NCBI RefSeq assembly: GCF_058153355.1
Contig: NZ_CM177019.1
Strand: one strand, 5' to 3'
DNA: 64,000 nt
Shown in pieces: positions 2,029-60,748 of this stretch (position 1 is the first letter of the stretch; every line of letters starts with the position of its first letter). Position numbers and translations under genes: made by a program. The notes beneath the pieces were generated by a model that saw only the letters and a list, made by a program, of their open reading frames with translations, had not been told where the DNA came from and did no database searches.

Positions 2029-2105
2029 GCGTTACGCCCCGGCACAGAGCGGGGGCGTGATTTCTCTCCATGCCGTGTAAATTAATTGGCTTAGGTGGAG
2101 TCGTT

Positions 2106-40576: not shown

Positions 40577-41422
40577 ATGGGAGATGGAAAGGGTAGTACG
40601 AGCGGAAAAAGCCAGAGCGGTGAACAGTGTGTAGTTTTAAAGGAGGGAAAAATTACTAATGATTTTAAAATAATGATGAGAGAGGCTCTGAAGGCGCTGA
40701 TGGCTGTATTGAAGAAAAGAGTAGAAGATCTTGGTGATAAATGGGGAGAGGAACAAAATCAGGAGTTTATAAATATATTTGGTATTGATGGAAATACTTA
40801 TATTAAATTAGAGTTCCCTTTCGGGGGGCGTAAGGTTATGTTTCCAGAGAATATAAAGGCAAGGGATTATATGAGAAATGGCGTTACTCGCCTGTATGAG
40901 ATATGTGGGGAATTATCTGTGGAAGGTGATTGTGTAGACGTTACTATTCATGACCATTTCCTCAAACGTGATGCCAATTGTAATCTTGTTCTTAATGACA
41001 AAGGGGGTAATGAATATGTTGACAAAGACGTAATCAGGCCCAAAACCGGTAACTTTGTGAATTGTACAGATAATGACGCTTATGCTGCCAATGTAACTTA
41101 CGATCAGATTTTGGGTGTAAAACCTGGAGGCTTTAAAAGTTTGGTAAGTATAACTATAGGACAAAGATTTATAGATAGGCCACCCACTGGGAAAAACTCT
41201 AAGGCATCGACACTCTGCCATGAACTATCTCACTTTATAAGGTACGGGGATTCATTTAAGTTTGGAGGCATGTGGACGGAAGATATGCCGGTAGATATAG
41301 AGTATAATACAGGTGACGAATATATTGTTCATGCCACTAAATTAAAAAATGATAAAAAATCAGAACTATTTCAGAATGCATATAATATCGAACGTTATTT
41401 CGAGATTCATGTACCATATTGA
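40577..41422 (+). CDS. Putative T6SS effector, HExxH zincin-like metallopeptidase candidate
   Basis: 281 aa from ATG 40577 (RBS aaggagg upstream); AT-rich; HELSH motif at 41219-41233 followed by …GGMWTEDMPVDIEYNTGDEY…; no signal peptide; directly downstream of vgrG-1. Confidence 0.55.
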   Translation: MGDGKGSTSGKSQSGEQCVVLKEGKITNDFKIMMREALKALMAVLKKRVEDLGDKWGEEQNQEFINIFGIDGNTYIKLEFPFGGRKVMFPENIKARDYMRNGVTRLYEICGELSVEGDCVDVTIHDHFLKRDANCNLVLNDKGGNEYVDKDVIRPKTGNFVNCTDNDAYAANVTYDQILGVKPGGFKSLVSITIGQRFIDRPPTGKNSKASTLCHELSHFIRYGDSFKFGGMWTEDMPVDIEYNTGDEYIVHATKLKNDKKSELFQNAYNIERYFEIHVPY

Positions 41423-41446
41423 TGCTTTTATTTGACGGGGGAGTAT

Positions 41447-42355
41447 ATGCTTGCTAGATGGATTGTTTTTATTGTTTTTTTTGCGCATCCAATATTTGCT
41501 TATGATATCTCTGGCGATTATGCTGTTCATTACAGATATGGGAAGTTATATTGGAATGGAGTAATGGACAAACTTGGTGTCTATCCTCGTGTAGAGCCGA
41601 CAAGGCTTAATTATTATGATTATTATGATGATCTTTCAGCCTATGCTGTTTTTCAATATTATACTATCAGTAAAAATGAGAGTCAGTATAATCAAGATAA
41701 AAATAAAATATATCTTCATCTTTCCGTGCATCAGAAAGAAAATATTGTAGCAGCTGCAGTGGTTTTATCGAATAAAAGCCAGGGATCTTATTTTGTTCAT
41801 CGACTAACTCTTCCTCTTGACGTTAACGGCGGGCCTTACTCTTCCTTGTGTAGTGGTGTGTTTATACCGATAATGGATAACATTCAGTTGGATTTTTTAA
41901 AAAAAACAAAATGTAGCTTTGGTGAATGGAAAAATAAATCCGTTTGGCACGAGATATTAACAGGGAAAGAGCTATCCTTTGATGTCATATTGAACGATTA
42001 TTATGCCTTTTTACCGGGCATTCATCGTTATAATATAGGAACGGTAGAATTTACAATAGTTAATCAAGAGTGGTTTACAGAACAATGTATATATGAGTAT
42101 TTTCTTTCTATTATGAACTGGCGGGCAGAAAGTGAGTGTACTAATCCTATAGATAAAATAAGATATGGTATAGAGGAGTGGCGGGTTTGGAGAATTTGTG
42201 GACCTTATCGTGGGTCAGGTCTATTTCAGGATTTTTTAGCACGCTTTGGCTATCATGGCGGTAATGATAATATATTCAAAATAAGATCAAATCAGGTTGT
42301 GGTTACTATTGATGGGGATAGGGCATCTCCTCCTTATTCGTTGAGGAATTATTAA
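41447..42355 (+). CDS. Putative cognate immunity protein (secreted/periplasmic) for the HExxH effector
   Basis: ~303 aa with N-terminal signal peptide MLARWIVFIVFFAHPIFA; AT-rich; starts 24 bp after the effector stop; no recognisable family. Confidence 0.45.
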   Translation: MLARWIVFIVFFAHPIFAYDISGDYAVHYRYGKLYWNGVMDKLGVYPRVEPTRLNYYDYYDDLSAYAVFQYYTISKNESQYNQDKNKIYLHLSVHQKENIVAAAVVLSNKSQGSYFVHRLTLPLDVNGGPYSSLCSGVFIPIMDNIQLDFLKKTKCSFGEWKNKSVWHEILTGKELSFDVILNDYYAFLPGIHRYNIGTVEFTIVNQEWFTEQCIYEYFLSIMNWRAESECTNPIDKIRYGIEEWRVWRICGPYRGSGLFQDFLARFGYHGGNDNIFKIRSNQVVVTIDGDRASPPYSLRNY

Positions 42356-42510
42356 TGTTAACTTATTGTCATGGCTACAATTCGTTGGTTTTCCTGTTGA
42401 GATGATAATATATATGAGAAAAACAGGCAATGAACCAGTGAGAGAATATCAGAAGATACGGTCAACATCGGTTAATTACTTTTTCCTGTAGCGATACCAG
42501 GGAGGTCATC

Positions 42511-44712
42511 ATGTCATTAAAAGGGCTGCGCTTTACGCTGACGGTGGACGGACTGGTGCCGGAGACGTTTGCGGTGGTGGATTTCCGCCTCACGCAGGCA
42601 TACTCATCGCCGTTCGTCCTGGATGTGGACGTTGCCAGCGACTCGTTCCGCCAGACGGCGGAGAAGCTGCTGGAGAAGGGGGCCGTACTGACCATCTGGC
42701 AGGGTGGCACGGCGCTGCGTTATGTGAGCGGTGTGGTGTCGGGGTTCGGCATGAAGGAGCACAACGGCTGGCAGATGCAGTACCACCTTCAGATACGTCC
42801 GCCCCTGTGGCGCAGCGGGCTGCGCCAGAACTACCGAATCTTCCAGCAGCAGGACATTCAGGCCATCTCCGCCACGCTGTTAAACGAGGACGGAGTGACG
42901 CAGTGGACGCCGCGCTTTTATGAGAGCCACCCGGCACGGGAGTTCTGCGTCCAGTACGGTGAAAGCGACATGGCGTTTCTGACCCGGCTGTGGGCGGGGG
43001 AAGGCATCTTCTTTTATGACAGATACGCTGACGACAGCCCGGAGCAGACGCTCACGCTGTGCGATGATGTGGCGGGCCTGCCGGTGTACGGGGAGATACC
43101 GTTTAACCCGAACACCCGTGAGGTGACGACGGCGTGCATCAGCCTGTTCCGCTACCAGGCGCAGGTGCGGCCCTCGCAGGTGCGTTCAAAAGACCACACG
43201 TTTAAGGTGCCGGACTGGCCGGGTATTTACATTGAGGATGCTGAAAACCTCAACGGGCAACTGAAGCAGTACAAAATCCTGGACTGGCCGGGGCGCTACA
43301 AGGACGAGCAGCATGGTCAGGACTTTACCCGCTACCGGCTGGAAGGGCTGCGTAACAGTGCTGAAACCGCCACAGGTATCAGTAACTCCCCGGCGCTGTG
43401 GCCGGGACGGCGGTTCACCTTGACGGGGCATCCGGTACAGGGAGCGAACCCGAACCGTGAGTGGCAGGTGGTGAGCAGCACGCTGACGGGGAGCCAGCCG
43501 CAGGCGCTGCACGGGAGTCACGGTGAAGGGACGACACTGAGCAATCAGTTTGAGGTGATACCGGCAGACAGGACGTGGCGTCACGCGCCGCTGCCGAAGC
43601 CGAAGGTGGACGGCCCGCAGAGTGCCATCGTGACCGGGCCGAAGGGTGAGGAGATATTCTGCGACGAGCATGGCCGGGTACGGGTGAAGTTTCACTGGGA
43701 CCGTTATCACGGGATGACGGAGGAGAGTTCGTGCTGGATACGGGTGTCGCAGGCATGGGCGGGACCGGGGTTCGGCAATCTGGCGATACCGCGTGTGGGT
43801 CAGGAAGTGATAGTGGACTTTCTGAACGGCGACCCGGACCAGCCCATTGTGACGGGGCGGACCTACCATGAAGATAACCGTTCACCGGGGGATTTACCGG
43901 GCACGCGGACGCAGATGACCATCCGCTCGAAGACCTATAAAGGAAGCGGCTTTAATGAACTGCGTTTCGAGGATGCGACGGACAGTGAGCAGGTGTATAT
44001 CCACGCGCAGAAGAACATGGACACGGAGGTGCTTAACGACCGGACGACGGACGTGAAGCATGACCATACGGAGACCATCGGTAACGACCAGAAGATAAGG
44101 GTGGTGAAGGGGCAGACGGTTGAGGTCGGCACCAGAAAAGAAGGGGGTCACGACCAGAGTATCACGGTGGCGAACGACCGGCGCATAACGGTACGTAATG
44201 ACCAGACGCTGAAGGTGACGAATGACCGGACGGTGAGCGTGAGTCACGATGACGGCCTGTATGTCAGAAACGACCGTAAAGTGACGGTGGAAGGGAAGCA
44301 GGAGCATAAGACGACGGGGAACCATATCAGCCTGGTGGAGGGAAAGCACAGTCTGGAGGTGAAGGGCGACCTGGCGAGGAAGATTACCGGTGCGCTGGGA
44401 ATGAAGGTCCGGAATGAAATCGTACTGGAGAGTGGCGGTAAAATCACCCTAAAGGTGGGTGGTTCGTTTGTGGTCATCCATTCAGGGGGCGTGGACATCG
44501 TCGGGCCGAAAATCAATCTCAATAGCGGCGGTAGTCCGGGAACGCCGGTGCCGACGCTACGACCGGCGGTTTTGAAAGCGCTGGCAGATTATGACAATGG
44601 CGGACCTGGAACTGAAGGGGCGGAGCCACCACGGAAAAGTGTACAGGAAGCCTTTGATCCTCCCCAGCAGGATAAGGTACCGCCACAACGGCCGGGAAGA
44701 TTCTCACGATAA
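42511..44712 (+). CDS. vgrG: Type VI secretion spike protein VgrG (copy 2)
   Basis: 733 aa from MSLKGLRFTLTVDGLVPETFAVVDF…; same architecture as copy 1; short Pro/Gln-rich C-terminal tail. Confidence 0.9.
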   Translation: MSLKGLRFTLTVDGLVPETFAVVDFRLTQAYSSPFVLDVDVASDSFRQTAEKLLEKGAVLTIWQGGTALRYVSGVVSGFGMKEHNGWQMQYHLQIRPPLWRSGLRQNYRIFQQQDIQAISATLLNEDGVTQWTPRFYESHPAREFCVQYGESDMAFLTRLWAGEGIFFYDRYADDSPEQTLTLCDDVAGLPVYGEIPFNPNTREVTTACISLFRYQAQVRPSQVRSKDHTFKVPDWPGIYIEDAENLNGQLKQYKILDWPGRYKDEQHGQDFTRYRLEGLRNSAETATGISNSPALWPGRRFTLTGHPVQGANPNREWQVVSSTLTGSQPQALHGSHGEGTTLSNQFEVIPADRTWRHAPLPKPKVDGPQSAIVTGPKGEEIFCDEHGRVRVKFHWDRYHGMTEESSCWIRVSQAWAGPGFGNLAIPRVGQEVIVDFLNGDPDQPIVTGRTYHEDNRSPGDLPGTRTQMTIRSKTYKGSGFNELRFEDATDSEQVYIHAQKNMDTEVLNDRTTDVKHDHTETIGNDQKIRVVKGQTVEVGTRKEGGHDQSITVANDRRITVRNDQTLKVTNDRTVSVSHDDGLYVRNDRKVTVEGKQEHKTTGNHISLVEGKHSLEVKGDLARKITGALGMKVRNEIVLESGGKITLKVGGSFVVIHSGGVDIVGPKINLNSGGSPGTPVPTLRPAVLKALADYDNGGPGTEGAEPPRKSVQEAFDPPQQDKVPPQRPGRFSR
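43497..44374. repeat. Near-identical ~0.9-kb vgrG 3'-core repeat, copy 2 of 3
   Basis: See copy 1. Confidence 0.85.
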
Positions 44713-44721
44713 GGACTGAAC

Positions 44722-47211
44722 ATGAAAATCAGCCATCCCATCAGGGATAAAGAAGGCAAAGAGTTTCGCTCACTGGATGAGATAATGCGGCTTATTGACA
44801 AAGAAGCGCACGGAACCTGGCTGCTGGGTGGAAACGGGCTGTGGCACGGCGGGATACATATCAGTGACGTGTCTAATCCGTTATCAGCCCTGAAACCGGA
44901 TACCGCCGCTACCGGAGAACCGGTTCCTCTTCAGTTTATGGCCGATGGCACCATTGCGGCGTACCGGATAAATAATGATTACCTGAAAGGCCCCTACAAA
45001 GGGCAGCAACTCCGTTACAGCAGCACATTTGTTCTGGTGAAATCGCAGTGCCAGCCAGACCCGCAAAAAAAAGAAAGCTGGCTGGAATTTTACTGTCTCT
45101 ATATGCATCTGGCCCCGGTGAACGATTATCCCGGCTCCCCCTGCTATAAAGTTAAAACCGGGCATGGTGGCATATTGCTGCACCGATACATCCCGGGAAA
45201 GAACGGCCTTCCCGAGGGGCAGGAAAGCGGAGATCATGCCACGTACTGGATACCCCCGAAAATCAGCGGAAACAGGACACTTAATGCGGGAGATCGGTTT
45301 GTGTCATCCCGGACCGGACGTTTTTACGTGACCAATAACGGCCAGCCGGTCCTGACGACATTCGGACTGGTTCGCCTGCTGGAAGGCAATAAACCGGGGA
45401 ATGAGCAGTACTGGGTGACCCTGGATCCGGATCTGATGGAGTCAGATGGCGAAATACAGATGCTGATGCCTGAGTGGATGCAGAAGGCGAAGGCAAAAGG
45501 CATTTTTGACTCGGTACAGACGGTCGACGAAACGGAAGAGTGGAAAGTCAGTGCCGGAACACCGGTCGGATTTATGGGATGCGAGGATTATCCTGGCGAG
45601 GGAAGCGGTGAGATTGAGCGCGAGTGGTTCGTCCATCTGGAGGTTCTGAGTACAGACCCGAATATGCCAAAGTTCTTATCCAACCCGGCAGGCGTTAAGG
45701 GAGAAAAACGGACTGTTCTGGCACCAAAAGGGATAATTTTATACACCCGGCAGGCCGTTCCGGGACAGGAGGTATTTACCGCAACCGCAGCCACGCTGGG
45801 TGCTCAGCGCGTTCTTCCGCGGGAAGCCACGACACCAGTCACGGATGAATCGCAGCAGTGGTGGTTTAATATCACCGGAACCGGCTGGCTGCCACAAAAG
45901 GATGTTGAAGAGGCCGGACAGTATGATTTACTGAAGCTGGGTTTTCAACCGCTGGAGGAGAACAGCAGCGGTGACATGACGTACAGCCCGTACGAAGGAT
46001 GGGTGCCGGAAGCGTTTGACTCAATAAGCCGTGCCGCAGAACAGGGAGATGAGTGGCTGTATGAGCAGGTACCGCCCTTTTATCGTGAGCTGATGGCGGG
46101 TATGGATCAGGACGGTGATGGAAAAGTGACGGAGGAAGAGATCAGACAGGCGCTGATCGTGCGTGAACCACTGGTGAGAAATGTGGTGAATCATCTGATA
46201 GTTAAACACCACAGCGAATGGTACGGAGGGCGCTCGACAGGGCGGTGGGAAGGATTTTATAAAGATCTGGATACAGAGGAAGTGGCATACTGTGAGAAGT
46301 GGCAGCTGGATCTGGAGTGGATGAGCGGGGTATCTCCGTTTAATAGTGATGATGCTGTGTGGCATTTTCATCCGGTTGTGTTTTTGGACGCTATTAATTC
46401 CAAATCTGTGTGTGCTTGCAACAGAGATATAACATTAGATGAATTAAAAAAAGTTGCTCCTGCAGTAAGTGAAGGTCTTCTCAAAAGGTACCTCTACGAT
46501 ATAAATGCAGGGTTTATTCGGTTTGGTATGACCACTTGTAGAGAAAAAGCCCATTTTCTTGCTCAAATTATTCACGAGAGCGGTTATTTTAGATATACCA
46601 AAGAAATTAATGGTGAATCAGCTTCATATAGTCCGTGGTATGGCCGAGGCTTAATACAAGTTACAGGCGAAAGTAATTACACCGCCTATGGGGAATATAT
46701 CAATGAGGACGTAACATCTTCAGATTCCGCAAGAGATAAACTCATATCCTCCCCACATTGCGTATTATCTGCGTTTTGGTATTTCAATATATTCAAAAGA
46801 ATAAATGAAGATGCTAAAAATGATGATTTTAATAAAATTACAGTAGTGATTAATGGAGGGTATAATCATTATGATGAACGGTTGTCGATATTTAATAAAT
46901 TGGTTACCTCACTTGCTGCCGAGCATTTAAATCAGAAAGAAATGAACGACGATTTCTTGTTTGATGATAGTGACGTATATGATAATAAAGTATATGCTTT
47001 GGGATGGGGGATATGGCATGATCCTGATAGCTCCCGAAGAGGGACGATCAAGAGTAACGAAGAAGCATTAAAAGGTTATAGAAGGGCGAAAGAATTAATT
47101 GACCTGCATCCGTTTCCTCAGGAAGGGCGTGAGGGTGATAGAAAAGTATATGGAATAGAAAAAAGGAATATATCCACATTTGTAGAGAGACGAATAACTG
47201 AACTGGAGTAA
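44722..47211 (+). CDS. Large T6SS effector: possible M23/LytM-like N-region, EF-hand calcium-binding motif, C-terminal GH19/lysozyme-like peptidoglycan hydrolase domain
   Basis: 829 aa; EF-hand loop DQDGDGKVTEEE (~46102); C-terminal …REKAHFLAQIIHESGYFRYTKEINGESASYSPWYGRGLIQVTGESNYTAYG… (from ~46537) matches the GH19 / 'predicted chitinase' catalytic signature; N-region WHGGIHISDV…ADGTIAAY…YMHL resembles a divergent M23 peptidase (tentative). Confidence 0.7.
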   Translation: MKISHPIRDKEGKEFRSLDEIMRLIDKEAHGTWLLGGNGLWHGGIHISDVSNPLSALKPDTAATGEPVPLQFMADGTIAAYRINNDYLKGPYKGQQLRYSSTFVLVKSQCQPDPQKKESWLEFYCLYMHLAPVNDYPGSPCYKVKTGHGGILLHRYIPGKNGLPEGQESGDHATYWIPPKISGNRTLNAGDRFVSSRTGRFYVTNNGQPVLTTFGLVRLLEGNKPGNEQYWVTLDPDLMESDGEIQMLMPEWMQKAKAKGIFDSVQTVDETEEWKVSAGTPVGFMGCEDYPGEGSGEIEREWFVHLEVLSTDPNMPKFLSNPAGVKGEKRTVLAPKGIILYTRQAVPGQEVFTATAATLGAQRVLPREATTPVTDESQQWWFNITGTGWLPQKDVEEAGQYDLLKLGFQPLEENSSGDMTYSPYEGWVPEAFDSISRAAEQGDEWLYEQVPPFYRELMAGMDQDGDGKVTEEEIRQALIVREPLVRNVVNHLIVKHHSEWYGGRSTGRWEGFYKDLDTEEVAYCEKWQLDLEWMSGVSPFNSDDAVWHFHPVVFLDAINSKSVCACNRDITLDELKKVAPAVSEGLLKRYLYDINAGFIRFGMTTCREKAHFLAQIIHESGYFRYTKEINGESASYSPWYGRGLIQVTGESNYTAYGEYINEDVTSSDSARDKLISSPHCVLSAFWYFNIFKRINEDAKNDDFNKITVVINGGYNHYDERLSIFNKLVTSLAAEHLNQKEMNDDFLFDDSDVYDNKVYALGWGIWHDPDSSRRGTIKSNEEALKGYRRAKELIDLHPFPQEGREGDRKVYGIEKRNISTFVERRITELE

Positions 47212-47216
47212 TTGAT

Positions 47217-47627
47217 ATGAAAGTTAATTTATTGGTTTTACTGTTTTGTTTGGTGCCTTGTTGTTTATTGGCTAAACAACAAACAACGGTAGGCTGTTTT
47301 AGCGCTGGGAAAACAAATTTAAAGTTTGTTGAAATATCGTCTGGCGATATTTTTTTAGGTTATGTGATTTATGAGAAATCCTCAAAATTTATACCTCTTG
47401 CGTTTATAAATAAATTAGAAGTGACTTTCGATGACAGGCCTTCTGAATTTTCTTATGCATGGAGCGAGGTTGTAAATGGAAAAATTAATGGGTTGTATGT
47501 TGTTTCCACACAAGGTGCAAGATTTAATTTGTTTCATTATAAATCAATAAGTGGGAAAACAACTGAGTTTGAAGAAAATATTGAGGCATATAATGATGAT
47601 GGTACTGATTGCAAATGGACTGGATGA
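47217..47627 (+). CDS. Putative periplasmic immunity protein for the lysozyme-like effector
   Basis: 136 aa with N-terminal signal sequence MKVNLLVLLFCLVPCCLLA; begins 5 bp after the effector stop; AT-rich. Confidence 0.45.
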   Translation: MKVNLLVLLFCLVPCCLLAKQQTTVGCFSAGKTNLKFVEISSGDIFLGYVIYEKSSKFIPLAFINKLEVTFDDRPSEFSYAWSEVVNGKINGLYVVSTQGARFNLFHYKSISGKTTEFEENIEAYNDDGTDCKWTG

Positions 47628-47775
47628 CCATTGTGCAGTTTTTTATGAAATCGATGCTGTGTTATTAAAATAATAATGCGACTAGGTTGAATTTGTTTAT
47701 TATTAATTTAAATGTTTTATGATTTTAAGTTAGACATGAATAACTGACTGGAAAATTATTTTTGAGGGATATCGT

Positions 47776-49070
47776 ACAGGCAGGCAGGGAAAGATCACGT
47801 AACGCTGCTTTTTTGTACTATACAATTCGCATTTTATGTTTGAAAATTGAGATATTCCTCATTACCTGAAGCTGTTTTTTATTGCTTATACATGATCAAA
47901 TACTCCTTACATAATTAAGGAGAACAAAATGGTACTTAAAAAATTGATGGAACATATTTCTATTATCCCCGATTACAGACAAGCCTGGAAAGTGGAACAT
48001 AAATTATCGGATATTCTACTGTTGACTATTTGCGCCGTTATTTCGGGTGCAGAAGGCTGGGAAGATATAGAGGATTTTGGGGAAACACATCTCGATTTTT
48101 TGAAGCAATATGGTGATTTTGAAAATGGTATTCCTGTTCACGATACCATTGTCAGAGTTGTATCCTGTATCAGTCCTGCAAAATTTCACGAGTGCTTTAT
48201 TAACTGGATGCGTGACTGCCATTCTTCAGATGATAAAGGCGTCATTGCAATTGATGGAAAAACGCTCCGGCACTCTTATGACAAGAGTCGCCGCAGGGGA
48301 GCGATTCATGTCATTAGTGCGTTCTCAACAATGCACAGTCTGGTCATCGGACAGATCAAGACGGATGAGAAATCCAATGAGATTACAGCTATCCCAGAAC
48401 TTCTTAACATGCTGGATATTAAAGGAAAAATCATCACAACTGATGCGATGGGTTGCCAGAAAGATATTGCAGAGAAGATACAAAAACAGGGAGGTGATTA
48501 TTTATTCGCGGTAAAAGGAAACCAGGGGCGGCTAAATAAAGCCTTTGAGGAAAAATTTCCGCTGAAAGAATTAAATAATCCAGATCATGACAGTTAAGCG
48601 ATTAGTGAAAAGAGTCACGGCAGAGAAAAAATCCGTCTTCATATTGTTTGCGATGTCCCTGATGAACTTATTGATTTCACGTTTGAATGGAAAGGTCTGA
48701 AGAAATTATGCGTGGCAGTCTCCTTTCGGTTAATAATAGCAGAACAAAAGAAAGAGCCAGAAATGACGGTCAGATATTATATCAGTTCTGCTGATTTAAC
48801 CGCAGAGAAGTTCGCCACAGCAATCCGAAACCACTGGCACGTGGAGAATAAGCTGCACTGGCGTCTGGACGTGGTAATGAATGAAGACGACTGCAAAATA
48901 AGAAGAGGAAACGCCGCAGAATTATTTTCAGGGATACGGCACATCGCTATTAATATTTTAACGAATGATAAGGTATTCAAGGCAGGGTTAAGACGTAAGA
49001 TGCGAAAAGCAGCCATGGACAGAAACTATCTCGCGTCAGTCCTTGCGGGGAGCGGGCTTTCGTAATCTTG
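47776..49070 (+). mobile_element. ISAs1-family (H-repeat / ISEc1-like) element inserted into vgrG copy 3
   Basis: ~1.3 kb; contains the H-repeat transposase gene; left-end sequence (gtacaggcagggaaagatcac…) recurs at 51856 and ~53976; right end abuts vgrG sequence beginning mid-gene (…FEVIPADRTW…). Confidence 0.7.
47929..49065 (+). pseudogene. ISAs1-family transposase (H-repeat protein, YhhI-like) with an in-frame TAA at 48595-48597
   Basis: ORFs 47929-48597 and 48712-49065 are in the same frame and both match the H-repeat protein ([58 protein letters not shown]… and …[41 protein letters not shown]…); full span would encode 378 aa. Confidence 0.8.
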
Positions 49071-49074
49071 CCCT

Positions 49075-49900
49075 GGAGGTGATACCGGCGGACAGGACGT
49101 GGCGTCACGCGCCCCTGCCGAAGCCGAAGGTGGACGGCCCGCAGAGTGCCATCGTGACCGGGCCGAAGGGCGAGGAGATATTCTGCGACGAGCATGGCCG
49201 GGTACGGGTGAAGTTTCACTGGGACCGTTATCACGGGATGACGGAGGAGAGTTCATGCTGGATACGGGCGTCGCAGGCATGGGCGGGACCGGGGTTCGGC
49301 AATCTGGCGATACCGCGTGTGGGTCAGGAAGTGATAGTGGACTTTCTGAACGGCGACCCGGACCAGCCCATTGTGACGGGGCGGACATACCATGAGGACA
49401 ACCGTTCACCGGGGGATTTACCGGGCACGCGGACGCAGATGACCATCCGCTCGAAGACCTATAAAGGAAGCGGCTTTAATGAACTGCGTTTCGAGGATGC
49501 GACGGACAGTGAGCAGGTGTATATCCACGCGCAGAAGAACATGGACACGGAGGTGCTTAACGACCGGACGACGGACGTGAAGCATGACCATACGGAGACC
49601 ATCGGTAACGACCAGAAGATAAGGGTGGTGAAGGGGCAGACGGTTGAGGTCGGCACCAGAAAAGAAGGGGGTCACGACCAGAGTATCACGGTGGCGAACG
49701 ACCGGCGCATAACGGTACGTAATGACCAGACGCTGAAGGTGACGAATGACCGGACGGTGAGCGTGAGTCACGATGACGGCCTGTATGTCAGAAACGACCG
49801 TAAAGTGACGGTGGAAGGGAAGCAGGAGCATAAGACGACGGGGAACCATATCAGTCTGGTGGAGGGAACGCACAGTCTGGAGGTGAAGGGCGACCTGGCG
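49075..49900. repeat. Near-identical vgrG 3'-core repeat, copy 3 of 3
   Basis: See copy 1. Confidence 0.8.
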
Positions 49901-51492
49901 AGGAAGATTACCGGTGCGCTGGGAATGAAGGTCCGGGATGAAATCGTACTGGAGAGTGGTGGTAAAATCACCCTGAAGTGGGTGGCTCGTTTGTGGTCGT
50001 TCATTCTGGTGGTGTGGATATTGTCGGACCGAAAATAAATCTGAATTGCGGGCGCAGTCCGGGGACGCCGATAAATACACTACAACCGGCAGTTATGGAC
50101 GCTCTGGCTGACGAGCAGTATGACAGAGGGAATGCTGGCGGCGGGAATGACGGAGAGCCTAGTGATGAGGATGAATCAGAAGGTGGAGAAGAAGACAAGG
50201 ACGATTCAGATGAACTGGTAATTCCTGTATACGCAAAATCTTGTCTGAAGGAGAAAGGCTGCACTGATGCTGGTACGACCATGGAGCCATCGAAACATTT
50301 TGGTGATATGGCTCTATTTGCCCAGCCAGTGGAGGATGACTGTTGCGGCTATGGTACACACTATCATGACGATGAAGTGGAGCAACTTGCGCAGTCAGCA
50401 AAAAAAACCTCAGGAGCGAACTCACTGACGGGGGAAATGACAGTTGCGTCAGCGGGTGTTGCGGTTCCACTAGCGGCGGAACAGTCTGCGGGAGTTTTAA
50501 CTCGCGTATGGGGAACATTAGGGGCATGGGGTGGAGAAGGTTTTTTAAGTGTATCAAAAACGGTGCCAGCCCTTGGTGTCCTAGTATCAGCACTATATCC
50601 AATACCTGCCGGTGAAGGTAGTGATAAAGTTCCTGGACGGGATGAACAGTGGCTCGAAAATGAGCTACGTCGTAAAGCGCAATCTGGAGAGACGGCAGCT
50701 ACGCGGGCGCGCTTTCTCTTTCAGCGGAATACTGCTGGTGAATTGAGGACATACGGATACCACACACCCGCAGGTTCGGAACTTGAAGGTGTTCGGGTAG
50801 CATTGATGGAGTGGAATAAGGAATTTTCCCGTTATGAATTTTCACCTGTGTCTGATTCGGGACCAAAAATATTTTGGACGCCTGCAAAGCCAGAAGGTTC
50901 AGAGCAGCCCATACACACCGGAACTCCTGTCGAACCAGTTGATCTACCTGATATTTATGTTAATCCGATACCCGATGAAAAAACAGATATCACCACGCCG
51001 CCTTCTCCAATGCCGGAGGAGCGAAATTTTAATGACTGGATACTTGTCTTTCCTGACGGTGCGGAATTAACACCAATATATGTGTATCTGAAAACTGCAA
51101 GGGATGTAGCGGGAACAGTAACAGGTAAGGGGGAGGTGTTAGCAGGTACAGGAAGATGGCTGTCGCAGGCGGGGAAAAGCTTAGGAGTGCCAATTCCACA
51201 ACAGGTCGCAAATAAACTTCGGAGTAAGTCATTTAACAATTTTGATGAATTCATGGCAGCTTTCTGGACTGCTGTAGGTGAATGTCCAGAACTATTGAGC
51301 CAATTTAATAAAGCTAACCAAACGTTGATAAAGCGTGGACGCGCACCTTATACTATATCAAGACAAAGAGTTGGGGGGCGAGGTACATTTGAAATTCATC
51401 ATATTGACGAAATCCAATATGGGGGAGAAGTCTATGATATTGATAATCTTAGAGTAAACACACCTAAAAACCACATACGATTGCATAAATAA
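49075..51492 (+). pseudogene. vgrG: vgrG copy 3, 'evolved' VgrG with C-terminal colicin E9/pyocin-type HNH DNase domain; 5'-truncated by ISAs1 and carrying a -1 frameshift near 49976
   Basis: Starts mid-gene at the ISAs1 right end; vgrG frame runs to ~49976 where ctgaagtgggtgg has lost one G relative to copies 1/2 (ctgaaggtgggtgg); downstream frame continues through a linker to …GVPIPQQVANKLRSKSFNNFDEFMAAFWTAVGECPELLSQ…RQRVGGRGTFEIHHIDEIQYGGEVYDIDNLRVNTPKNHIRLHK (~51169-51489), which aligns closely with the colicin E9 DNase domain. Confidence 0.8.
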
Positions 51493-51505
51493 AAAGGAGG
51501 TAGTA

Positions 51506-51778
51506 ATGGAGTTTAAAAATAATCTAGAAGATTATACGGAAGATGAATTTATCGAACTTCTAAATAATTTTTTTGAACCACCTGAGGAATTGCATGGCGA
51601 TAAGTTGTCGAAGTTTATTGATGATCTTGTAAGTCATTTTATTAGAATCACTCAGCACCCAGATGGTAGTGATTTGATATTCTATCCATCTGAAGATAGA
51701 GAAGATAGTCCCCAAGGGATTGTTGATGAGTTAAAACGATGGCGAGCATCGCAGGGGCTAGGATGCTTTAAAATATAA
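51506..51778 (+). CDS. Colicin E9-type DNase immunity protein (Im9-like)
   Basis: 90 aa: MEFKNNLEDYTEDEFIELLNNFF…HFIRITQHPDGSDLIFYPSEDREDSPQGIVDELKRWRASQG aligns along its length with Im9 (MELKHSISDYTEAEFLQLV…[35 protein letters not shown]); strong RBS aaggagg; 13 bp after the DNase stop. Confidence 0.85.
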   Translation: MEFKNNLEDYTEDEFIELLNNFFEPPEELHGDKLSKFIDDLVSHFIRITQHPDGSDLIFYPSEDREDSPQGIVDELKRWRASQGLGCFKI

Positions 51779-51855
51779 TGAAAATAAATACTCATCATAT
51801 TTTATTAAAATGATTGGTGTTTTTGTTATTAACCTTAAACCACTTCCTGAGAAGG

Positions 51856-52301
51856 TGGTACAGGGAAAGATCACCAGAAGTACACTTTTTGTACTAAATA
51901 ATTCGCATTTTATGTTCAATAATTGAGATATTCCTCATTACCTGAGGCTGTTTTTTATTGCTTATACATGATCAAATACTCCTTACATAATTAAGGAGAA
52001 CAAAATGGAACTTAAAAAATTGATGGAACATATTTCTGTTATTCCTGATTACAGACAAGCCTGGAAAGTGGAACATAAATTGTCGGATATTCTACTTTTG
52101 ACTATTTGCTCCGTCATTTCTGGTACAGAAGGCTGGCAAGATATAGAGAATTTTGGGGAAACACATCTCGATTTTTTGAAGCGACATGGTGATTTTTGAA
52201 ATGGTATTCCTGTTCACATACCATTGCCAGAGTTGTATCCTGTATCAGCCCTGCAAAATTTCATGAGTGCTTTATTAAAAGGAAACCAGGGGCGGCTTAA
52301 T
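51856..52301 (+). mobile_element. Degraded ISAs1/H-repeat remnant (left end plus internally deleted transposase fragment) fused to effector sequence
   Basis: Left-end sequence and transposase N-terminus ([58 protein letters not shown]…) present, then a deletion to the internal …KGNQGRLN segment, which joins directly to effector-2-like sequence at ~52302. Confidence 0.6.
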
Positions 52302-53465
52302 ATCACCGGAACCGGCTGGCTGCCACAAAAGGATGTTGAAGAGGCCGGACAGTATGATTTACTGAAGCTGGGTTTTCAACCGCTGGAGGAGAACAGCAGC
52401 GGTGACATGACGTACAGCCCGTACGAAGGATGGGTGCCGGAAGCGTTTGACTCAATAAGCCGTGCCGCAGAACAGGGAGATGAGTGGCTGTATGAGCAGG
52501 TACCGCCCTTTTATCGTGAGCTGATGGCGGGTATGGATCAGGACGGTGATGGAAAAGTGACGGAGGAAGAGATCAGACAGGCGCTGACCGTGCGTGAACC
52601 ACTGGTGAGAAATGTGGTGAATCGTCTGACAGTCAGACACCACAGCGAGTGGTACGGCGGTCGCTCGACGGGACGCTGGGAAGGGTTTTATAAAGATCTG
52701 GACACCGAGGAAGTGGCATACTGTGAAAAGTGGCAGCTGGATCTGGAGTGGATGAGCGGGGTGTCTCCGTTTAATAGTGATGATGCTGTGTGGCATTTTC
52801 ATCCGGTTGTGTTTTTGAATGCTATTAATAATAGCAATTACCCAAAAACTCCTGTGAATAATGAACTTATTCCATTGGAATTTTTACGATTTTATAACGG
52901 AGATACCATTGATGATGCAGACTATGAAAATGCTGCAAGGACACTACAATGCGAAGTGGCTGCAATTAAAGCTGTTGCAAAAACTGAAACTGGTAGTTCC
53001 GGTAGCTATTTTAAATTTGAACAAGAAGATGATTACGTCCCCTCAATTCTTTTTGAAAGACATCATTTCCATCGATATACGAATGGTGTGTATGATTCTC
53101 AACCTGATATTTCCAACAGCCGTTCTGGCGGTTATGGAACACGATCGGAGCAATATCAAAAATTACTTCGTGCATATGTTTTAGATAAGCAAGCTGCGCT
53201 TAAATCGGCATCGTGGGGTAAATTTCAGATATTGGCTTCAAATTACCAAGCTACCGGGTACTCTTCGCCCGAAGAGTTTATAATATCGATTTCAGAGTTA
53301 GAGAAAAACCATCTGGCGGCATTCATTAACTTCATAAAATCTAATCCTGTATTATTGCGTGCTATTAGAGATAAAGATTGGCTTAACTTTGCTCTATGTT
53401 ATAATGGGCAAAGTCAGCGAGGATATGATGACAGAATAAGGGCTAATTATGAGCAATATAGATAG
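52302..53465 (+). CDS. Orphan effector 3' module: conserved effector mid-region fused to a muramidase-like (PF11860/DUF3380-type) C-terminal domain; 5' end replaced by the H-repeat remnant
   Basis: 52302-52817 is ~97% identical to effector-2 45871-46386 (NITGTGWLPQKDVEEAGQYDLLK…EF-hand…VWHFHPVVFL), after which the sequence diverges into …AAIKAVAKTETGSSGSYFKFEQEDDYVPSILFERHHFHRYT…SASWGKFQILASNYQATGYSSPEEFI…NGQSQRGYDDRIRANYEQY, resembling the N-acetylmuramidase family (recalled motif pattern, not searched). Confidence 0.55.
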   Translation: MTGTGWLPQKDVEEAGQYDLLKLGFQPLEENSSGDMTYSPYEGWVPEAFDSISRAAEQGDEWLYEQVPPFYRELMAGMDQDGDGKVTEEEIRQALTVREPLVRNVVNRLTVRHHSEWYGGRSTGRWEGFYKDLDTEEVAYCEKWQLDLEWMSGVSPFNSDDAVWHFHPVVFLNAINNSNYPKTPVNNELIPLEFLRFYNGDTIDDADYENAARTLQCEVAAIKAVAKTETGSSGSYFKFEQEDDYVPSILFERHHFHRYTNGVYDSQPDISNSRSGGYGTRSEQYQKLLRAYVLDKQAALKSASWGKFQILASNYQATGYSSPEEFIISISELEKNHLAAFINFIKSNPVLLRAIRDKDWLNFALCYNGQSQRGYDDRIRANYEQYR

Positions 53466-53898
53466 AGCATTAATTTTTATTTTTTTATCTGGAATTCCCT
53501 GGACTCTACACGCAGGAAATAATTATTTTTTATGTAATACATCCAAAGGAACTTTGTCATTAACAAGTTTTGGTGAAACGTTGATTTATGAAATGAATAG
53601 TCAGCATGGGAATAAATTTCAATTCATTTCAGATGGACCAATGTATTCAGGATTTTTTTATAATCATTACTCCAGATTTCAAACGGATTACTTTAGCGTT
53701 AGTTTTATTCAAAGTGGATATAAGTACTCCGTGTTTAGCAATTACGACAACGGTAGTAACATGCGAGGGGTTAGTGTCATTGATATGAAAACAAAAAAAG
53801 AATACGTTTATAATTGCAAAGATTATAAAGTGGACAGGCTTTATAATCTGAAAAAAAAGCTTAAATGTGATATTAATAATGTACTAAGTTGTCAGTAA
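53449..53898 (+). CDS. Putative periplasmic immunity protein for the muramidase-like toxin module
   Basis: 149 aa, hydrophobic N-terminus MSNIDRALIFIFLSGIPWTLHA; overlaps the effector stop by 17 nt; very AT-rich. Confidence 0.4.
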   Translation: MSNIDRALIFIFLSGIPWTLHAGNNYFLCNTSKGTLSLTSFGETLIYEMNSQHGNKFQFISDGPMYSGFFYNHYSRFQTDYFSVSFIQSGYKYSVFSNYDNGSNMRGVSVIDMKTKKEYVYNCKDYKVDRLYNLKKKLKCDINNVLSCQ

Positions 53899-53975
53899 AT
53901 TGTATCTTACAACGTTCGGGCGGTACGATTTACTGAAGCTGGCTTTTCATAGGCTGGAGGAAAACAGCAAGGGTA

Positions 53976-54645
53976 ATAAAGGTAAAGACCATATAACGCC
54001 GATTTTTTGCACTAAACAATTAGCACTAAATGTCCAATAATCAAGATATCCCTTATTATTTAATAAGTGTTTTCATAGCTTATATATATTCAGACACTCC
54101 TTACATAAACAAGGAGAAAAAATGGAACTTAAAAAATTAATGGAGCATATTTCTACTGTCCCGATTACAGACAAGTCTGGAAAGTAGAGTATAAATTATC
54201 AGATATCCTAGTGCTGATTATTTTCGCCATCCTTTCCGGAGCTGAAGGATGGGAAGATATAGAGGATTCTGGTGAGACTCATCTCGATTTGTTGAAGCAA
54301 TATGGTGATTTTTAATATGGTATTCCTATTCACGATATCATTGCCAGAGTTGTGTCCTGTATCAGTCCTGGAAAATTTCACGAGTTCTTTATTAGCTGGA
54401 TGTGTGACTGTCATTCTTCAGATAATAAAACCATCATCGCAATAGATGGAAAAGCACTCCAGCACTTTTTTGATTAGCATCGTCGCAGAGGAACAATTCA
54501 TAATCATTGCGATCTCGACGATGTATAGTCTGATCCTGCGGCAGAACAAGACGGATAAAAAATCTAATGAGAGCACACTCATCAAGAACTTCTCAACCTA
54601 ATGAATATTAAAGAAAAATCATCGCAGCCAATGAAGTAATATGCA
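53976..54645 (+). mobile_element. Heavily degraded ISAs1/H-repeat remnant (multiple stops/frameshifts, 3' truncated)
   Basis: Recognisable but broken transposase N-terminus ([11 protein letters not shown]…[28 protein letters not shown]…); preceded at 53921-53975 by another fragment of the effector mid-region (…YDLLKL…LEEN…). Confidence 0.55.
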
Positions 54646-54697
54646 AAAATAATTAGTCCTTACAAGGAGCAAAGTTCCATAATCTCCCCCGCCCCCC

Positions 54698-55836: not shown

Positions 55837-56199
55837 TTAGATCTCCGGGAACGTGGAATAGTCAGTCTTTTTCTCGGCGGCGAGTTGATGCTCCAGCCGG
55901 GAAATTCGGTCAGAAAGTGCGGCGATTTCCGGGTCAGTCGCTTTCTCCTGCGACGCAACATGTGACTGCATACCCCAGCCACGCTCCGGTTGATAGAGCG
56001 TCGCCCAGATCCACAGGAACGGCCAGATAACATGCAGAGTAAACAGGCTCACCCAGCCCGCCGTATGAATAGCGTCGGCATGGGGGTGATTGCGCTTTTT
56101 GGCAATCAGATAAGGGATGTCATGTATCGCGATGATTCCATAAAAAATCACCAGAAAGACGAAGATCAGCACTCCCAACGCGAAATAGTTTAGAAACAT
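55837..56199 (-). CDS. yibI: DUF3302 small inner-membrane protein (yiaW paralogue)
   Basis: 120 aa: [45 protein letters not shown]…. Confidence 0.85.
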
Positions 56200-56415
56200 A
56201 TCTGCCTCGGATTCACGTTTATCGGTGTTGTTTTTTGGCTGGCAGCCAGAAGGGAGTCAGGCTGATATTTTGACAATAATTCGGGTTCGCGATTCTCGCC
56301 ATAACACCAAAGAATAATTTTTAGAGGTGATGAGTTGCTTAGTTACATAACGATTTTATGACGAAGGCATAACATGCTGCAGATCACATCAGGTGAACGC
56401 CGTAAGAAAATATCT

Positions 56416-56592
56416 TGTGATTCAGATCACAAAGATTCAACAAACTAACAAAACAAAAATGTGACATTACTCACATTTAAATGCCATTTTTAGCGAAAAT
56501 CGCCGTCTTGTTGCTTTTTTACACAAGTATTTTGTGATGCACATCACGTCAATTACCTCTCTACCCCCTATATTTATGTGATCTATATCACA
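56416..56592 (+). promoter_or_regulatory. mtlA promoter region with at least three CRP-consensus sites
   Basis: TGTGATTCAGATCACA (56416-56431, perfect consensus), TGTGATGCACATCACG (56533-56548), TGTGATCTATATCACA (56577-56592); all within 320 bp upstream of mtlA. Confidence 0.55.
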
Positions 56593-56735
56593 CAAAAAGC
56601 CGTCGACTGGACAGTTAACCGATTCAGTGCCAGATTTCGCACTATCAACAAGGTCCGGCTACCTCTGCCGCCACATTAACAAAAAACCTCGGGCTTCCAG
56701 CCTGCGCGACAGCAAACATAAGAAGGGGTGTTTTT

Positions 56736-58649
56736 ATGTCATCCGATATTAAGATCAAAGTGCAAAGCTTTGGTCGTTTCCTCAGCAACATGGTGATGCC
56801 AAATATCGGCGCGTTTATCGCGTGGGGTATCATCACCGCGTTATTTATTCCAACAGGGTGGTTACCGAACGAAACGCTGGCGAAGCTGGTCGGGCCGATG
56901 ATCACTTATCTCCTGCCGCTGCTGATCGGTTATACCGGTGGTAAGCTGGTAGGCGGCGAACGTGGCGGCGTAGTCGGTGCCATCACCACCATGGGCGTTA
57001 TCGTCGGCGCAGATATGCCGATGTTCCTCGGTTCTATGATTGCAGGTCCGCTGGGCGGCTGGTGCATTAAGCACTTCGACCGCTGGGTAGACGGTAAGAT
57101 CAAATCCGGTTTTGAGATGCTGGTGAATAACTTCTCCGCTGGCATCATCGGGATGATCCTCGCTATTCTGGCGTTCCTCGGCATTGGCCCAATTGTTGAA
57201 GCCCTGTCCAAAATGCTGGCTGCGGGCGTTAACTTCATGGTTGTCCATGACATGCTGCCGCTGGCGTCTATCTTTGTTGAACCGGCGAAAATCCTGTTCC
57301 TCAACAACGCCATTAACCACGGTATCTTCTCGCCGCTGGGTATTCAGCAGTCCCATGAACTGGGTAAATCCATCTTCTTCCTGATTGAAGCTAACCCAGG
57401 TCCGGGTATGGGTGTTCTGCTGGCGTACATGTTCTTTGGCCGTGGTAGCGCTAAACAGTCTGCGGGCGGTGCGGCAATCATTCACTTCCTGGGGGGTATC
57501 CACGAAATCTACTTCCCGTATGTGCTGATGAATCCGCGTCTGATCCTGGCCGTTATCCTCGGTGGTATGACTGGCGTATTCACGCTGACTATCCTGGGCG
57601 GTGGTCTGGTTTCACCGGCATCTCCGGGTTCTATCCTTGCTGTACTGGCAATGACACCAAAAGGTGCTTACTTCGCTAACATCGCGGGTGTGTGTGCGGC
57701 GATGGCAGTCTCCTTCGTTGTCTCTGCTATTTTGCTGAAAACCAGCAAAGTGAAAGAAGAAGATGACATTGAAGCAGCAACGCGTCGTATGCAGGACATG
57801 AAAGCTGAATCTAAAGGTGCATCTCCGCTGTCTGCTGGCGATGTGACTAACGACCTGAGCCACGTCCGTAAAATCATCGTTGCCTGTGATGCCGGTATGG
57901 GTTCCAGTGCGATGGGCGCAGGTGTGCTGCGTAAGAAAATTCAGGATGCAGGTCTGTCGCAGATTTCTGTTACTAACAGCGCGATCAACAACCTGCCGCC
58001 AGATGTGGACCTGGTCATCACTCACCGTGACCTGACCGAACGCGCTATGCGCCAGGTTCCGCAGGCACAGCATATTTCGCTGACCAACTTCCTCGACAGC
58101 GGCCTGTACACCAGCCTGACCGAACGTCTGGTTGCTGCCCAGCGCCATACTGAAAACGAAGTAAAAGTGAAAGACAGTCTGAAAGACAGCTTTGACGATT
58201 CCAGTGCTAACCTGTTCAAACTGGGCGCGGAGAACATCTTCCTTGGTCGCAAAGCGGCAACCAAAGAAGAAGCGATTCGTTTTGCTGGCGAGCAGCTGGT
58301 GAAAGGCGGTTACGTTGAGCCGGAATACGTTCAGGCGATGCTGGATCGTGAAAAACTGACCCCGACCTATCTGGGTGAGTCTATCGCGGTGCCGCACGGT
58401 ACGGTTGAAGCGAAAGACCGCGTACTGAAAACGGGCGTGGTGTTCTGCCAGTACCCGGAAGGCGTGCGCTTCGGTGAAGAAGAAGATGACATTGCCCGCC
58501 TGGTGATTGGTATTGCTGCCCGTAACAACGAGCACATTCAGGTGATCACCAGCCTGACCAATGCACTGGATGATGAGTCCGTCATCGAGCGTCTGGCGCA
58601 CACCACCAGCGTGGATGAAGTGCTGGAACTGCTGGCAGGTCGTAAGTAA
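56736..58649 (+). CDS. mtlA: Mannitol-specific PTS enzyme IICBA
   Basis: 637 aa from MSSDIKIKVQSFGRFLSNMVMPNIGAFIAWGIITALF…; IIC membrane domain, IIB cysteine region (CDAGMGSSAMG), IIA His domain. Confidence 0.95.
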   Translation: MSSDIKIKVQSFGRFLSNMVMPNIGAFIAWGIITALFIPTGWLPNETLAKLVGPMITYLLPLLIGYTGGKLVGGERGGVVGAITTMGVIVGADMPMFLGSMIAGPLGGWCIKHFDRWVDGKIKSGFEMLVNNFSAGIIGMILAILAFLGIGPIVEALSKMLAAGVNFMVVHDMLPLASIFVEPAKILFLNNAINHGIFSPLGIQQSHELGKSIFFLIEANPGPGMGVLLAYMFFGRGSAKQSAGGAAIIHFLGGIHEIYFPYVLMNPRLILAVILGGMTGVFTLTILGGGLVSPASPGSILAVLAMTPKGAYFANIAGVCAAMAVSFVVSAILLKTSKVKEEDDIEAATRRMQDMKAESKGASPLSAGDVTNDLSHVRKIIVACDAGMGSSAMGAGVLRKKIQDAGLSQISVTNSAINNLPPDVDLVITHRDLTERAMRQVPQAQHISLTNFLDSGLYTSLTERLVAAQRHTENEVKVKDSLKDSFDDSSANLFKLGAENIFLGRKAATKEEAIRFAGEQLVKGGYVEPEYVQAMLDREKLTPTYLGESIAVPHGTVEAKDRVLKTGVVFCQYPEGVRFGEEEDDIARLVIGIAARNNEHIQVITSLTNALDDESVIERLAHTTSVDEVLELLAGRK

Positions 58650-58659
58650 TCCAATCCCA

Positions 58660-58990
<331 letters not shown>

Positions 58991-59012
58991 AACATTGATG
59001 AAGGTTAATACT

Positions 59013-60161
59013 ATGAAAGCATTACATTTTGGCGCAGGTAATATCGGTCGTGGCTTTATCGGTAAACTGCTGGCAGACGCAGGTATCCAACTGACGTTTG
59101 CCGATGTCAATCAGGTGGTACTTGATGCCCTGAATGCCCGTCATAGCTATCAGGTTCATGTGGTCGGTGAAACCGAGCAGGTAGATACCGTTTCTGGCGT
59201 CAATGCTGTCAGCAGCATTGGTGATGATGTCGTTGAGCTGATTGCTCAGGTTGATTTAGTCACTACCGCCGTGGGCCCGGTTGTGCTGGAACGTATTGCT
59301 CCGGCAATCGCCAAAGGGCTGGTGAAACGTAAAGAACAAGGTAATGAATCCCCGCTGAACATTATCGCCTGTGAAAACATGGTACGCGGCACCACGCAGC
59401 TGAAAGGCCATGTGATGAACGCCCTGCCAGAAGACGCCAAAGCGTGGGTAGAAGAACACGTTGGCTTTGTGGACTCTGCCGTTGACCGCATCGTACCGCC
59501 TTCCGCTTCGGCAACGAACGATCCGCTGGAAGTGACAGTCGAAACCTTCAGCGAATGGATTGTCGATAAAACTCAGTTCAAAGGTGCACTGCCGAACATC
59601 CCAGGCATGGAGTTAACCGACAACCTGATGGCATTTGTTGAGCGTAAACTCTTCACCCTGAATACAGGTCATGCTATAACCGCGTACCTCGGAAAACTGG
59701 CGGGTCATCAGACCATTCGTGACGCGATTCTCGACGCGAAAATCCGCGCGGTGGTAAAAGGTGCGATGGAAGAAAGCGGCGCTGTACTGATTAAGCGTTA
59801 CGGTTTTGACGCGGACAAACATGCGGCGTACATCCAGAAAATCCTTGGTCGTTTTGAAAACCCGTATCTGAAAGACGATGTAGAGCGCGTAGGCCGTCAG
59901 CCGCTGCGTAAACTGAGTGCTGGCGACCGTCTGATCAAGCCACTGCTCGGAACGCTGGAATATGGTCTGCCACATAAAAACCTGATTGAAGGTATTGCCG
60001 CTGCAATGCACTTCCGCAGTGAAGATGATCCGCAGGCTCAGGAACTGGCAGCACTGATTGCCGACAAAGGCCCGCAAGCCGCACTGGCGCAGATTTCTGG
60101 CCTTGATGCTAACAGCGAGGTTGTATCCGAGGCGGTAACCGCTTATAAAGCAATGCAATAA
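59013..60161 (+). CDS. mtlD: Mannitol-1-phosphate 5-dehydrogenase
   Basis: 382 aa from [20 protein letters not shown] (Rossmann GxGxxG); the ORF-track start at 58869 runs through the REP cluster and is an extension. Confidence 0.95.
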
Positions 60162-60748
60162 TGGTGGACCAGGCGCAGGACTCCCTGCGCCCGAATAACA
60201 GATTGTCAGATATGCAGGCAACAATGGAACAAACCCAGGCCTTTGAAAACCGTGTGCTTGAGCGTCTGAATGCTGGCAAAACCGTGCGAAGCTTTCTGAT
60301 TACCGCCGTCGAGCTTTTGACCGAGGCGGTAAATCTTCTGGTGCTTCAGGTATTCCGCAAAGACGATTACGCGGTGAAGTATGCTGTAGAACCGTTACTC
60401 GACGGCGATGGCCCGCTGGGCGATCTTTCTGTGCGTTTAAAACTCATTTACGGGTTGGGTGTCATTAACCGCCATGAATATGAAGATGCGGAACTGCTGA
60501 TGGCATTGCGTGAAGAACTAAATCACGACGGCAATGAGTACGCCTTTACCGACGATGAAATTCTTGGCCCCTTTGGTGAGCTGCACTGTGTGGCGGCGTT
60601 ACCACCGCCGCCACAGTTTGAACCCGCAGACTCCAGTTTGTATGCAATGCAAATTCAGCGTTACCAACAGGCTGTGCGATCAACAATGGTCCTTTCACTG
60701 ACAGAGCTGATTTCCAAAATCAGCTTAAAAAAAGCCTTTCAAAAGTAA
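60161..60748 (+). CDS. mtlR: Mannitol operon repressor
   Basis: 195-aa ORF overlapping the mtlD stop (TAATG). Confidence 0.85.
   Translation: MVDQAQDSLRPNNRLSDMQATMEQTQAFENRVLERLNAGKTVRSFLITAVELLTEAVNLLVLQVFRKDDYAVKYAVEPLLDGDGPLGDLSVRLKLIYGLGVINRHEYEDAELLMALREELNHDGNEYAFTDDEILGPFGELHCVAALPPPPQFEPADSSLYAMQIQRYQQAVRSTMVLSLTELISKISLKKAFQK

Follow-up and report, generated by a model that had tools for sequence, protein, structure and literature searches.

The mannitol operon mtlADR of Escherichia coli K-12 is controlled from an operator with five CRP sites, CRP1 to CRP5, whose centres lie 43, 44, 73 and 44 bp apart (Lee et al., 2026, NAR, PMC13421365), a site count that traces back to an earlier description of the promoter (Ramseier and Saier, 1995, Microbiology 141:1901). 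Transcription of mtl requires CRP in this strain; CRP1 retains 7 of 10 conserved bases and CRP2 and CRP3 retain all 10, and chromosomal replacement of CRP2, CRP4 or CRP5 abolishes both mtlD expression and growth on mannitol, with replacement of CRP3 having a mild effect and CRP1 being dispensable (PMC13421365). The repressor MtlR has no DNA-binding domain and supershifts only complexes of two CRP dimers bound 43-46 bp apart (optimum 44-45 bp), so that the 73-bp CRP3/CRP4 pair is not bound (PMC13421365). During mannitol transport EII-Mtl is dephosphorylated and then retains MtlR at the membrane, through a surface of MtlR for which dephosphorylated HPr also competes (PMC13421365). The gel shifts, the effects of mutating the sites and the dependence of MtlR recruitment on spacing were shown for the K-12 allele, and the operators of four other species only were examined alongside it (PMC13421365). 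In E. coli H10407, CRP ChIP-seq peaks were reported over CRP1/CRP2 and over CRP4/CRP5 (Haycocks et al., 2015, PMC4287617).

The window, that is, the whole 64,000-nucleotide stretch of DNA analysed here, carries this locus. We assign positions 56373-56643, with a probability of roughly 0.93, as the operator and promoter of the mtlADR mannitol operon of E. coli, which CRP activates and MtlR represses through pairs of CRP sites; no observation made here speaks against this assignment. All components of the published mechanism are represented in the window, because the five sites, their spacing and an intact mtlR gene are present; site identity, scores, spacing, orthology and conservation are observed directly, and CRP binding, activation and the action of MtlR would carry over from the literature on K-12 and H10407. 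The genes that flank the control region are as follows.

55837-56199, minus strand: yibI (DUF3302), the divergent neighbour, encoding a protein identical to K-12 YibI.
56736-58649, plus strand: mtlA, mannitol PTS transporter EIICBA, 637 aa (NCBIfam PRK15083, 1324 bits).
59013-60161, plus strand: mtlD, mannitol-1-phosphate 5-dehydrogenase, an open reading frame.
60161-60748, plus strand: mtlR, repressor, 195 aa, intact (NCBIfam MltR family, 256.6 bits).

The order mtlA-mtlD-mtlR downstream of the CRP array is the arrangement found in K-12, and the start of mtlD was placed at the methionine of MKALHFG by comparison with the annotated K-12 gene. The mtlA product differs from that of K-12 at 2 amino acids, and MtlR is identical at 193 of 195 residues to the E. 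coli protein in PDB 6KCR, the two differences being at residues 8 and 105 and the C-terminal part being fully identical. The divergent yibI gene differs from its K-12 counterpart by 3 silent nucleotide changes; yibH and yibI lie upstream, and mtlA and mtlD downstream, in both annotated records consulted (K-12 and the closest genome), which also both use the name yibI. A first-pass annotation of this DNA had referred to the neighbour as a yibI paralogue, a label that cannot be kept for a gene whose product is 100 % identical to YibI in the same arrangement. Elsewhere in the operon, the spacer between mtlA and mtlD (58650-59012) is 363 bp long in the window versus 229 bp in K-12, and contains REP-like repeats, seen as sub-threshold matches to the Rfam family naRNA4 at 58758-94 and 58893-949.

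The divergent genes yibI and mtlA are separated by a 536-bp spacer (56200-56735), which 5404 of 5426 complete E. coli genomes contain and which can be aligned without gaps to its K-12 MG1655 counterpart at 96.6 % identity. The allele in the window is rare: just 14 of the 5426 genomes carry a spacer at least 99 % identical to it, and most are at about 96.6 %. Its nearest match, from strain 2020CK-00188 (99.6 %), differs at two adjacent bases, both located in the six central bases of CRP5.

Beyond yibH, the window also contains an island of about 16.7 kb (37966-54697), bounded on its other side by yibF (glutathione S-transferase, 37357-37965, minus strand). The island encodes two full VgrG proteins, the spike of type VI secretion (38148-40493 and 42511-44712), a truncated VgrG C-terminal part (49043-50038), an open reading frame with pyocin-S and colicin-DNase domains (49978-51492), another with an N-acetylmuramidase domain (52224-53465) and an IS-type DDE transposase (47929-48597), and it includes direct repeats of 300 nt. 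In four other E. coli genomes yibF lies about 70 bp from yibH, and the island looks like a variable insertion hot spot with toxin cargo.

The CRP sites were scored with a matrix built from 103 CRP ChIP-seq 16-mers of E. coli H10407 (Haycocks et al., 2015, PMC4287617, Table 1), which was made symmetric and from which the four yibI/mtlA sites were left out, rendering it independent of the sites under test. The sites are listed below with their centres in window coordinates and relative to the transcription start, and with their matrix scores and ranks.

56373-56388: CRP1, weak distal site CATGCTGCAGATCACA; centre 56380.5 (-262.5); 7/10 core bases, 9.8 bits, rank 15.
56416-56431: CRP2, TGTGATTCAGATCACA; centre 56423.5 (-219.5); perfect core, 19.8 bits, rank 2.
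56460-56475: CRP3, TGTGACATTACTCACA; centre 56467.5 (-175.5); perfect core, 15.2 bits, rank 4.
56533-56548: CRP4, TGTGATGCACATCACG; centre 56540.5 (-102.5); one core mismatch, 17.9 bits, rank 3.
56577-56592: CRP5, promoter-proximal site TGTGATCTATATCACA; centre 56584.5 (-58.5); perfect core, 20.4 bits, rank 1.

CRP2 to CRP5 take the first four ranks across the 64 kb, the next best position in the window scoring 12.2 bits, and the median genuine (training) CRP site scores 12.8 bits. Scores of at least 14 bits occur four times in the window, whereas 64 kb of random first-order Markov sequence would be expected to give 0.43. Likewise, the motif TGTGA-N6-TCACA with at most one mismatch is matched four times (1.66 expected), in each case within the 177 bp that had been flagged at the outset. 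The single core mismatch of CRP4 is common to the window and K-12.

On sequence grounds, the flagged palindromes can be identified as the CRP sites of the multi-CRP mannitol promoter, a feature already known in detail. The first-pass annotation had proposed three sites of consensus quality, and the three 16-mers it quoted (TGTGATTCAGATCACA, TGTGATGCACATCACG and TGTGATCTATATCACA) are found exactly at 56416-31, 56533-48 and 56577-92, are the three highest-scoring positions in the 64 kb (20.4, 19.8 and 17.9 bits for CRP5, CRP2 and CRP4, all above the genuine-site median) and correspond to CRP2, CRP4 and CRP5 of the published K-12 operator. Its appeal to a multi-CRP architecture was sound, although the known operator has five sites, four of them strong, rather than three: both CRP3, with a perfect core inside the flagged interval, and the weak CRP1 had been overlooked. 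The spacing it gave, 60-115 bp, needs replacing as well, the listed sites being in fact 117 and 44 bp apart, centre to centre.

The centre-to-centre spacings of the complete array are 43, 44, 73 and 44 bp, and the published K-12 centres (-262.5, -219.5, -175.5, -102.5 and -58.5) match the sites in the window one-to-one. The CRP1-CRP2 (43 bp), CRP2-CRP3 (44 bp) and CRP4-CRP5 (44 bp) pairs thus fall within the 43-46 bp that MtlR requires, with CRP3-CRP4 at 73 bp; by analogy with K-12, it is this 43-46 bp spacing of adjacent sites that would be the functionally decisive property. The sites had also been put forward as a means of defining the promoter boundary next to yibI, a use which survives in a sharpened form: CRP1, the outermost known site, begins at 56373, which is 174 bp away from the start codon of yibI; in functional terms the mtl control region would extend upstream as far as CRP2, which begins at 56416 and is the outermost site needed for expression in K-12.

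The start of mtlA transcription is predicted at about 56643 (+/-2) by transfer from K-12, because the centre of CRP5 at 56584.5 plus 58.5 gives this position; the K-12 start itself comes from old S1 mapping, as quoted by Lee et al. (PMC13421365). Centred at -58.5, CRP5 misses the canonical Class I position (-61.5) by 3 bp. The published distances between sites and start, taken with the sequence, suggest the following promoter elements.

56608-56613, plus strand: putative -35 hexamer TGGACA, from the published site-to-start distances and the sequence.
56615-56628, minus strand: candidate Cra/FruR box ACTGAATCGGTTAA, between the -35 and -10 hexamers.
56631-56636, plus strand: putative -10 hexamer CAGATT, weak, following TGGACA after a 17-bp spacer, from geometry and sequence.
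56643-56735, plus strand: predicted mtlA leader, 93 nt, from the transferred start.

In an ungapped alignment of 42 sequences (described below), TGGACA is present at the same position in 24 and CAGATT in 22. A scan for consensus sigma-70 promoters found none for either gene on the relevant strands, including the plus strand for mtlA, a result that would be expected of an activator-dependent promoter and that lends no separate support to the two putative hexamers. A structured RNA or known sRNA in the leader was likewise considered and rejected, a permissive Rfam scan of 56150-59100 having returned no family that matches the 93-nt segment.

The candidate Cra/FruR box is an exact match to the consensus, RSTGAAWCSNTHHW, which reportedly stems from work by Ramseier and colleagues in 1995. 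The consensus is matched four times in the window versus 0.44 expected, the other matches being at 5862, 13272 and 55357, and the match at 56615-28 is the sole one within the mtl control region. Cra has been reported to repress mtl, and the candidate box would fit this role; it also fits the unusual conservation of the segment between the -35 and -10 hexamers among closer relatives. As a broadly conserved element it had to be rejected, since it is exact in just 9 of the 42 aligned sequences (at most two mismatches in 17).

If the K-12 mechanism applies, high cAMP would cause CRP dimers to fill CRP2 to CRP5 and so activate the weak sigma-70 promoter (TGGACA, 17 bp, CAGATT, with a start near 56643) in a Class III arrangement that could not do without CRP2, CRP4 and CRP5. 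The same CRP sites would double as the operator for the repressor MtlR, whose bridging of CRP pairs would block activation. Transport of mannitol would leave MtlA (EII-Mtl) dephosphorylated and able to hold MtlR at the membrane, relieving repression, and in the presence of glucose dephosphorylated HPr would free MtlR from the transporter.

The pattern of variation within E. coli separates the bases of the CRP sites into two classes. Relative to K-12, the spacer in the window shows 18 differences, none in the 50 core positions and six in the 30 central positions, with CRP1, CRP3, CRP4 and CRP5 each altered in their central six bases; at CRP4 the window allele scores 17.9 versus 16.3 bits for that of K-12, and at CRP5 20.4 versus 18.1 bits. 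Ten E. coli genomes gave the following values.

CRP core bases: 1 of 50 segregating, pi 0.004.
CRP central six bases: 12 of 30 segregating, pi 0.167.
Rest of the spacer: 37 of 456 segregating, pi 0.026.
Fourfold-degenerate mtlA sites: 95 of 339 segregating, pi 0.090.

Compared with the fourfold-degenerate sites of mtlA, constraint is evident in these ten genomes both for the cores (Fisher p = 6e-6) and for the remainder of the spacer (p = 1e-13), whereas the central bases are no different from neutral (p = 0.21). Two observations had hinted at a mutational hot spot or diversifying selection in the central six bases, namely the concentration there of 6 of the 18 differences between the window and K-12 (Fisher p = 2e-4 versus the rest of the spacer) and the restriction to CRP5 of the differences from the closest genome. 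This explanation was rejected on the comparison of 12/30 with 95/339, and the central bases look neutral inside an otherwise constrained region. CRP2 is identical, central six included, in the 10 alleles compared and in the 12 tabulated E. coli alleles, and among the ten genomes there are four central-base alleles of CRP3, six of CRP4 and five of CRP5. The cores are invariant in 12 E. coli alleles and one E. albertii allele, save for one base in each of two divergent alleles.

In strain GPEC1054 (L083, about 155-3000) the yibI-mtlA spacer is interrupted by an IS21-family element carrying istA and istB, at a point equivalent to about 56399/56400 of the window. The insertion falls between CRP1 and CRP2 and cuts CRP1 off from the remaining operator, which could be tolerated provided that CRP1 is not needed, as has been reported in K-12.

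The geometry of the array extends far beyond E. coli. An MtlA-anchored scan, with one genome per species, returned 80 loci, and exact 44/73/44 spacing was found in 42 sequences: the window, K-12 and 40 other genomes, nearly all from different species of Enterobacterales, spanning Escherichia, Citrobacter, Enterobacter, Cedecea, Serratia, Pantoea, Erwinia, Yersinia, Rahnella, Pectobacterium, Hafnia, Budvicia and others. The expectation that the sites would be conserved in other strains and species is borne out, CRP2 to CRP5 scoring at least 11.8 bits in all 42 aligned sequences (minima of 12.9 bits for CRP2 and 11.8 bits for CRP3). CRP1 had to be rejected as a conserved site, reaching 10 bits or more in only 10 of the 42, and its poor conservation matches its dispensability in K-12. 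In Aeromonas, Tolumonas, a Photobacterium, Providencia and one Budvicia, one or more gaps are off by a single bp, the CRP3-CRP4 gap being 72-74 bp in these cases, and a 43-bp CRP pair is kept in several Vibrio species.

Outside the CRP sites, the ungapped 42-sequence alignment also shows three short blocks whose conservation is about on a par with that of the CRP cores: AAAATA at 56407-12, AACAAA at 56439-44, which sits near the midpoint of the CRP2-CRP3 interval, and a T-tract at 56514-21, upstream of CRP4. They could be Fis sites or bending elements, or points at which the MtlR-CRP complex makes contact. The invariance of the 73-bp gap in the 42 sequences, despite its inability to recruit MtlR, and its length of about 7.0 helical turns suggest a further reading, in which the operator works as one fixed higher-order complex, with two MtlR-bridged CRP pairs in helical register, selection on the geometry of the whole array and possibly, within the gap, another factor or an intrinsic bend; this we hold to be unlikely, if worth keeping in mind. 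The order-wide invariance of 44/73/44, together with the conserved blocks outside the CRP sites, bears on how the upstream CRP cluster activates transcription.

A different view of the same region is that CRP1 to CRP3 serve the divergent yibIH genes, besides or instead of mtlA, within a shared bidirectional control region. The ChIP-seq study did attribute the CRP1/CRP2 peak to yibI, on nearest-gene grounds (PMC4287617), and the whole 536-bp spacer, including the 173 bp that adjoin yibI, is less variable than neutral sites (pi 0.026 versus 0.090), such that more functions may be encoded in it. However, of the 41 other loci that carry the 44/73/44 array, 28 lack a yibI homologue in the flank examined, and because the array is present at these loci it belongs to, and travels with, mtlA. 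In addition, mutation of CRP2 abolishes mtl expression in K-12 (PMC13421365), the site nearest to yibI is the weak and poorly conserved CRP1, and between 56200 and 56400 the minus strand yielded nothing resembling a yibI promoter in the consensus scan. A role for these sites at yibIH is thus rather improbable.

Very improbable, by the same measure, is a version, built on the three sites of the first-pass annotation, in which these act as simple independent activator sites whose spacing is without significance. The three sites listed are indeed the highest-scoring ones, and they are also those whose loss abolishes expression in K-12 (PMC13421365). Against this version stand the existence of two more sites, CRP3 with its perfect core and the weak CRP1, and the requirement of MtlR for 43-46 bp between its CRP dimers (PMC13421365). 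The invariance of 44/73/44 in 42 sequences tells against it as well.

FNR half-sites read TTGAT/ATCAA and CRP-S half-sites TGCGA/TCGCA, and the CRP sites of the CytR-controlled promoter deoP2 are spaced by roughly 52-53 bp. That the palindromes are a product of chance, or belong to another regulator (FNR, a CytR-type anti-activator complex or Sxy-dependent CRP-S sites), is an explanation of negligible weight, the sole hint of another regulator being that repressor-bridged tandem CRP sites also occur at CytR-controlled promoters (PMC13421365), set against four sites of at least 14 bits crowded into 177 bp, cores that read TGTGA/TCACA rather than FNR or CRP-S half-sites, a spacing of 44 bp rather than that of deoP2, and CRP binding shown for the K-12 and H10407 alleles (PMC13421365, PMC4287617).

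For the annotation of this DNA, the assignment as a CRP-activated, MtlR-repressed mtlADR operator-promoter places CRP sites at 56373-56592 and a promoter near 56608-56643, and corrects the number of sites, their spacing and the name of the neighbouring gene. The mechanism of repression, in which MtlR docks on CRP pairs spaced by 43-46 bp, was elucidated in 2026 and no new biology is claimed here; the modest additions are the invariance of 44/73/44 across a far wider set of Enterobacterales than the four species of that study, and a rare allele in which CRP4 and CRP5 are closer to consensus.

Among other described systems, the CytR-CRP complexes (e.g. at deoP2) resemble MtlR in that a repressor contacts tandem DNA-bound CRP dimers and so turns activator sites into an operator (PMC13421365). 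CytR differs in having a DNA-binding domain of its own and in sitting between the CRP sites; MtlR lacks such a domain and recognises nothing but the 43-46 bp geometry (PMC13421365). The malK/malEp arrays are similar as well, in that a sugar-transport operon is preceded by several CRP sites in a Class III arrangement, but the malK sites are 34 bp apart and recruit MtlR only if this distance is lengthened to 44 bp (PMC13421365). The mtl system of Vibrio cholerae also has a CRP-dependent mtlA promoter and pairs of CRP sites 43-44 bp apart, although a cis-antisense sRNA, MtlS, which is absent from E. coli (PMC13421365), is added there. With K-12 mtlADR the window shares the locus, the flanking genes, the five sites, their core pentamers and the 43/44/73/44 spacing, with no indels over 536 bp. 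It can be described as an allelic variant of the K-12 operator, separated from it by 18 substitutions in 536 bp, six of which lie in the central six bases of CRP1, CRP3, CRP4 and CRP5, and with CRP4 and CRP5 nearer the ideal consensus than their K-12 counterparts.
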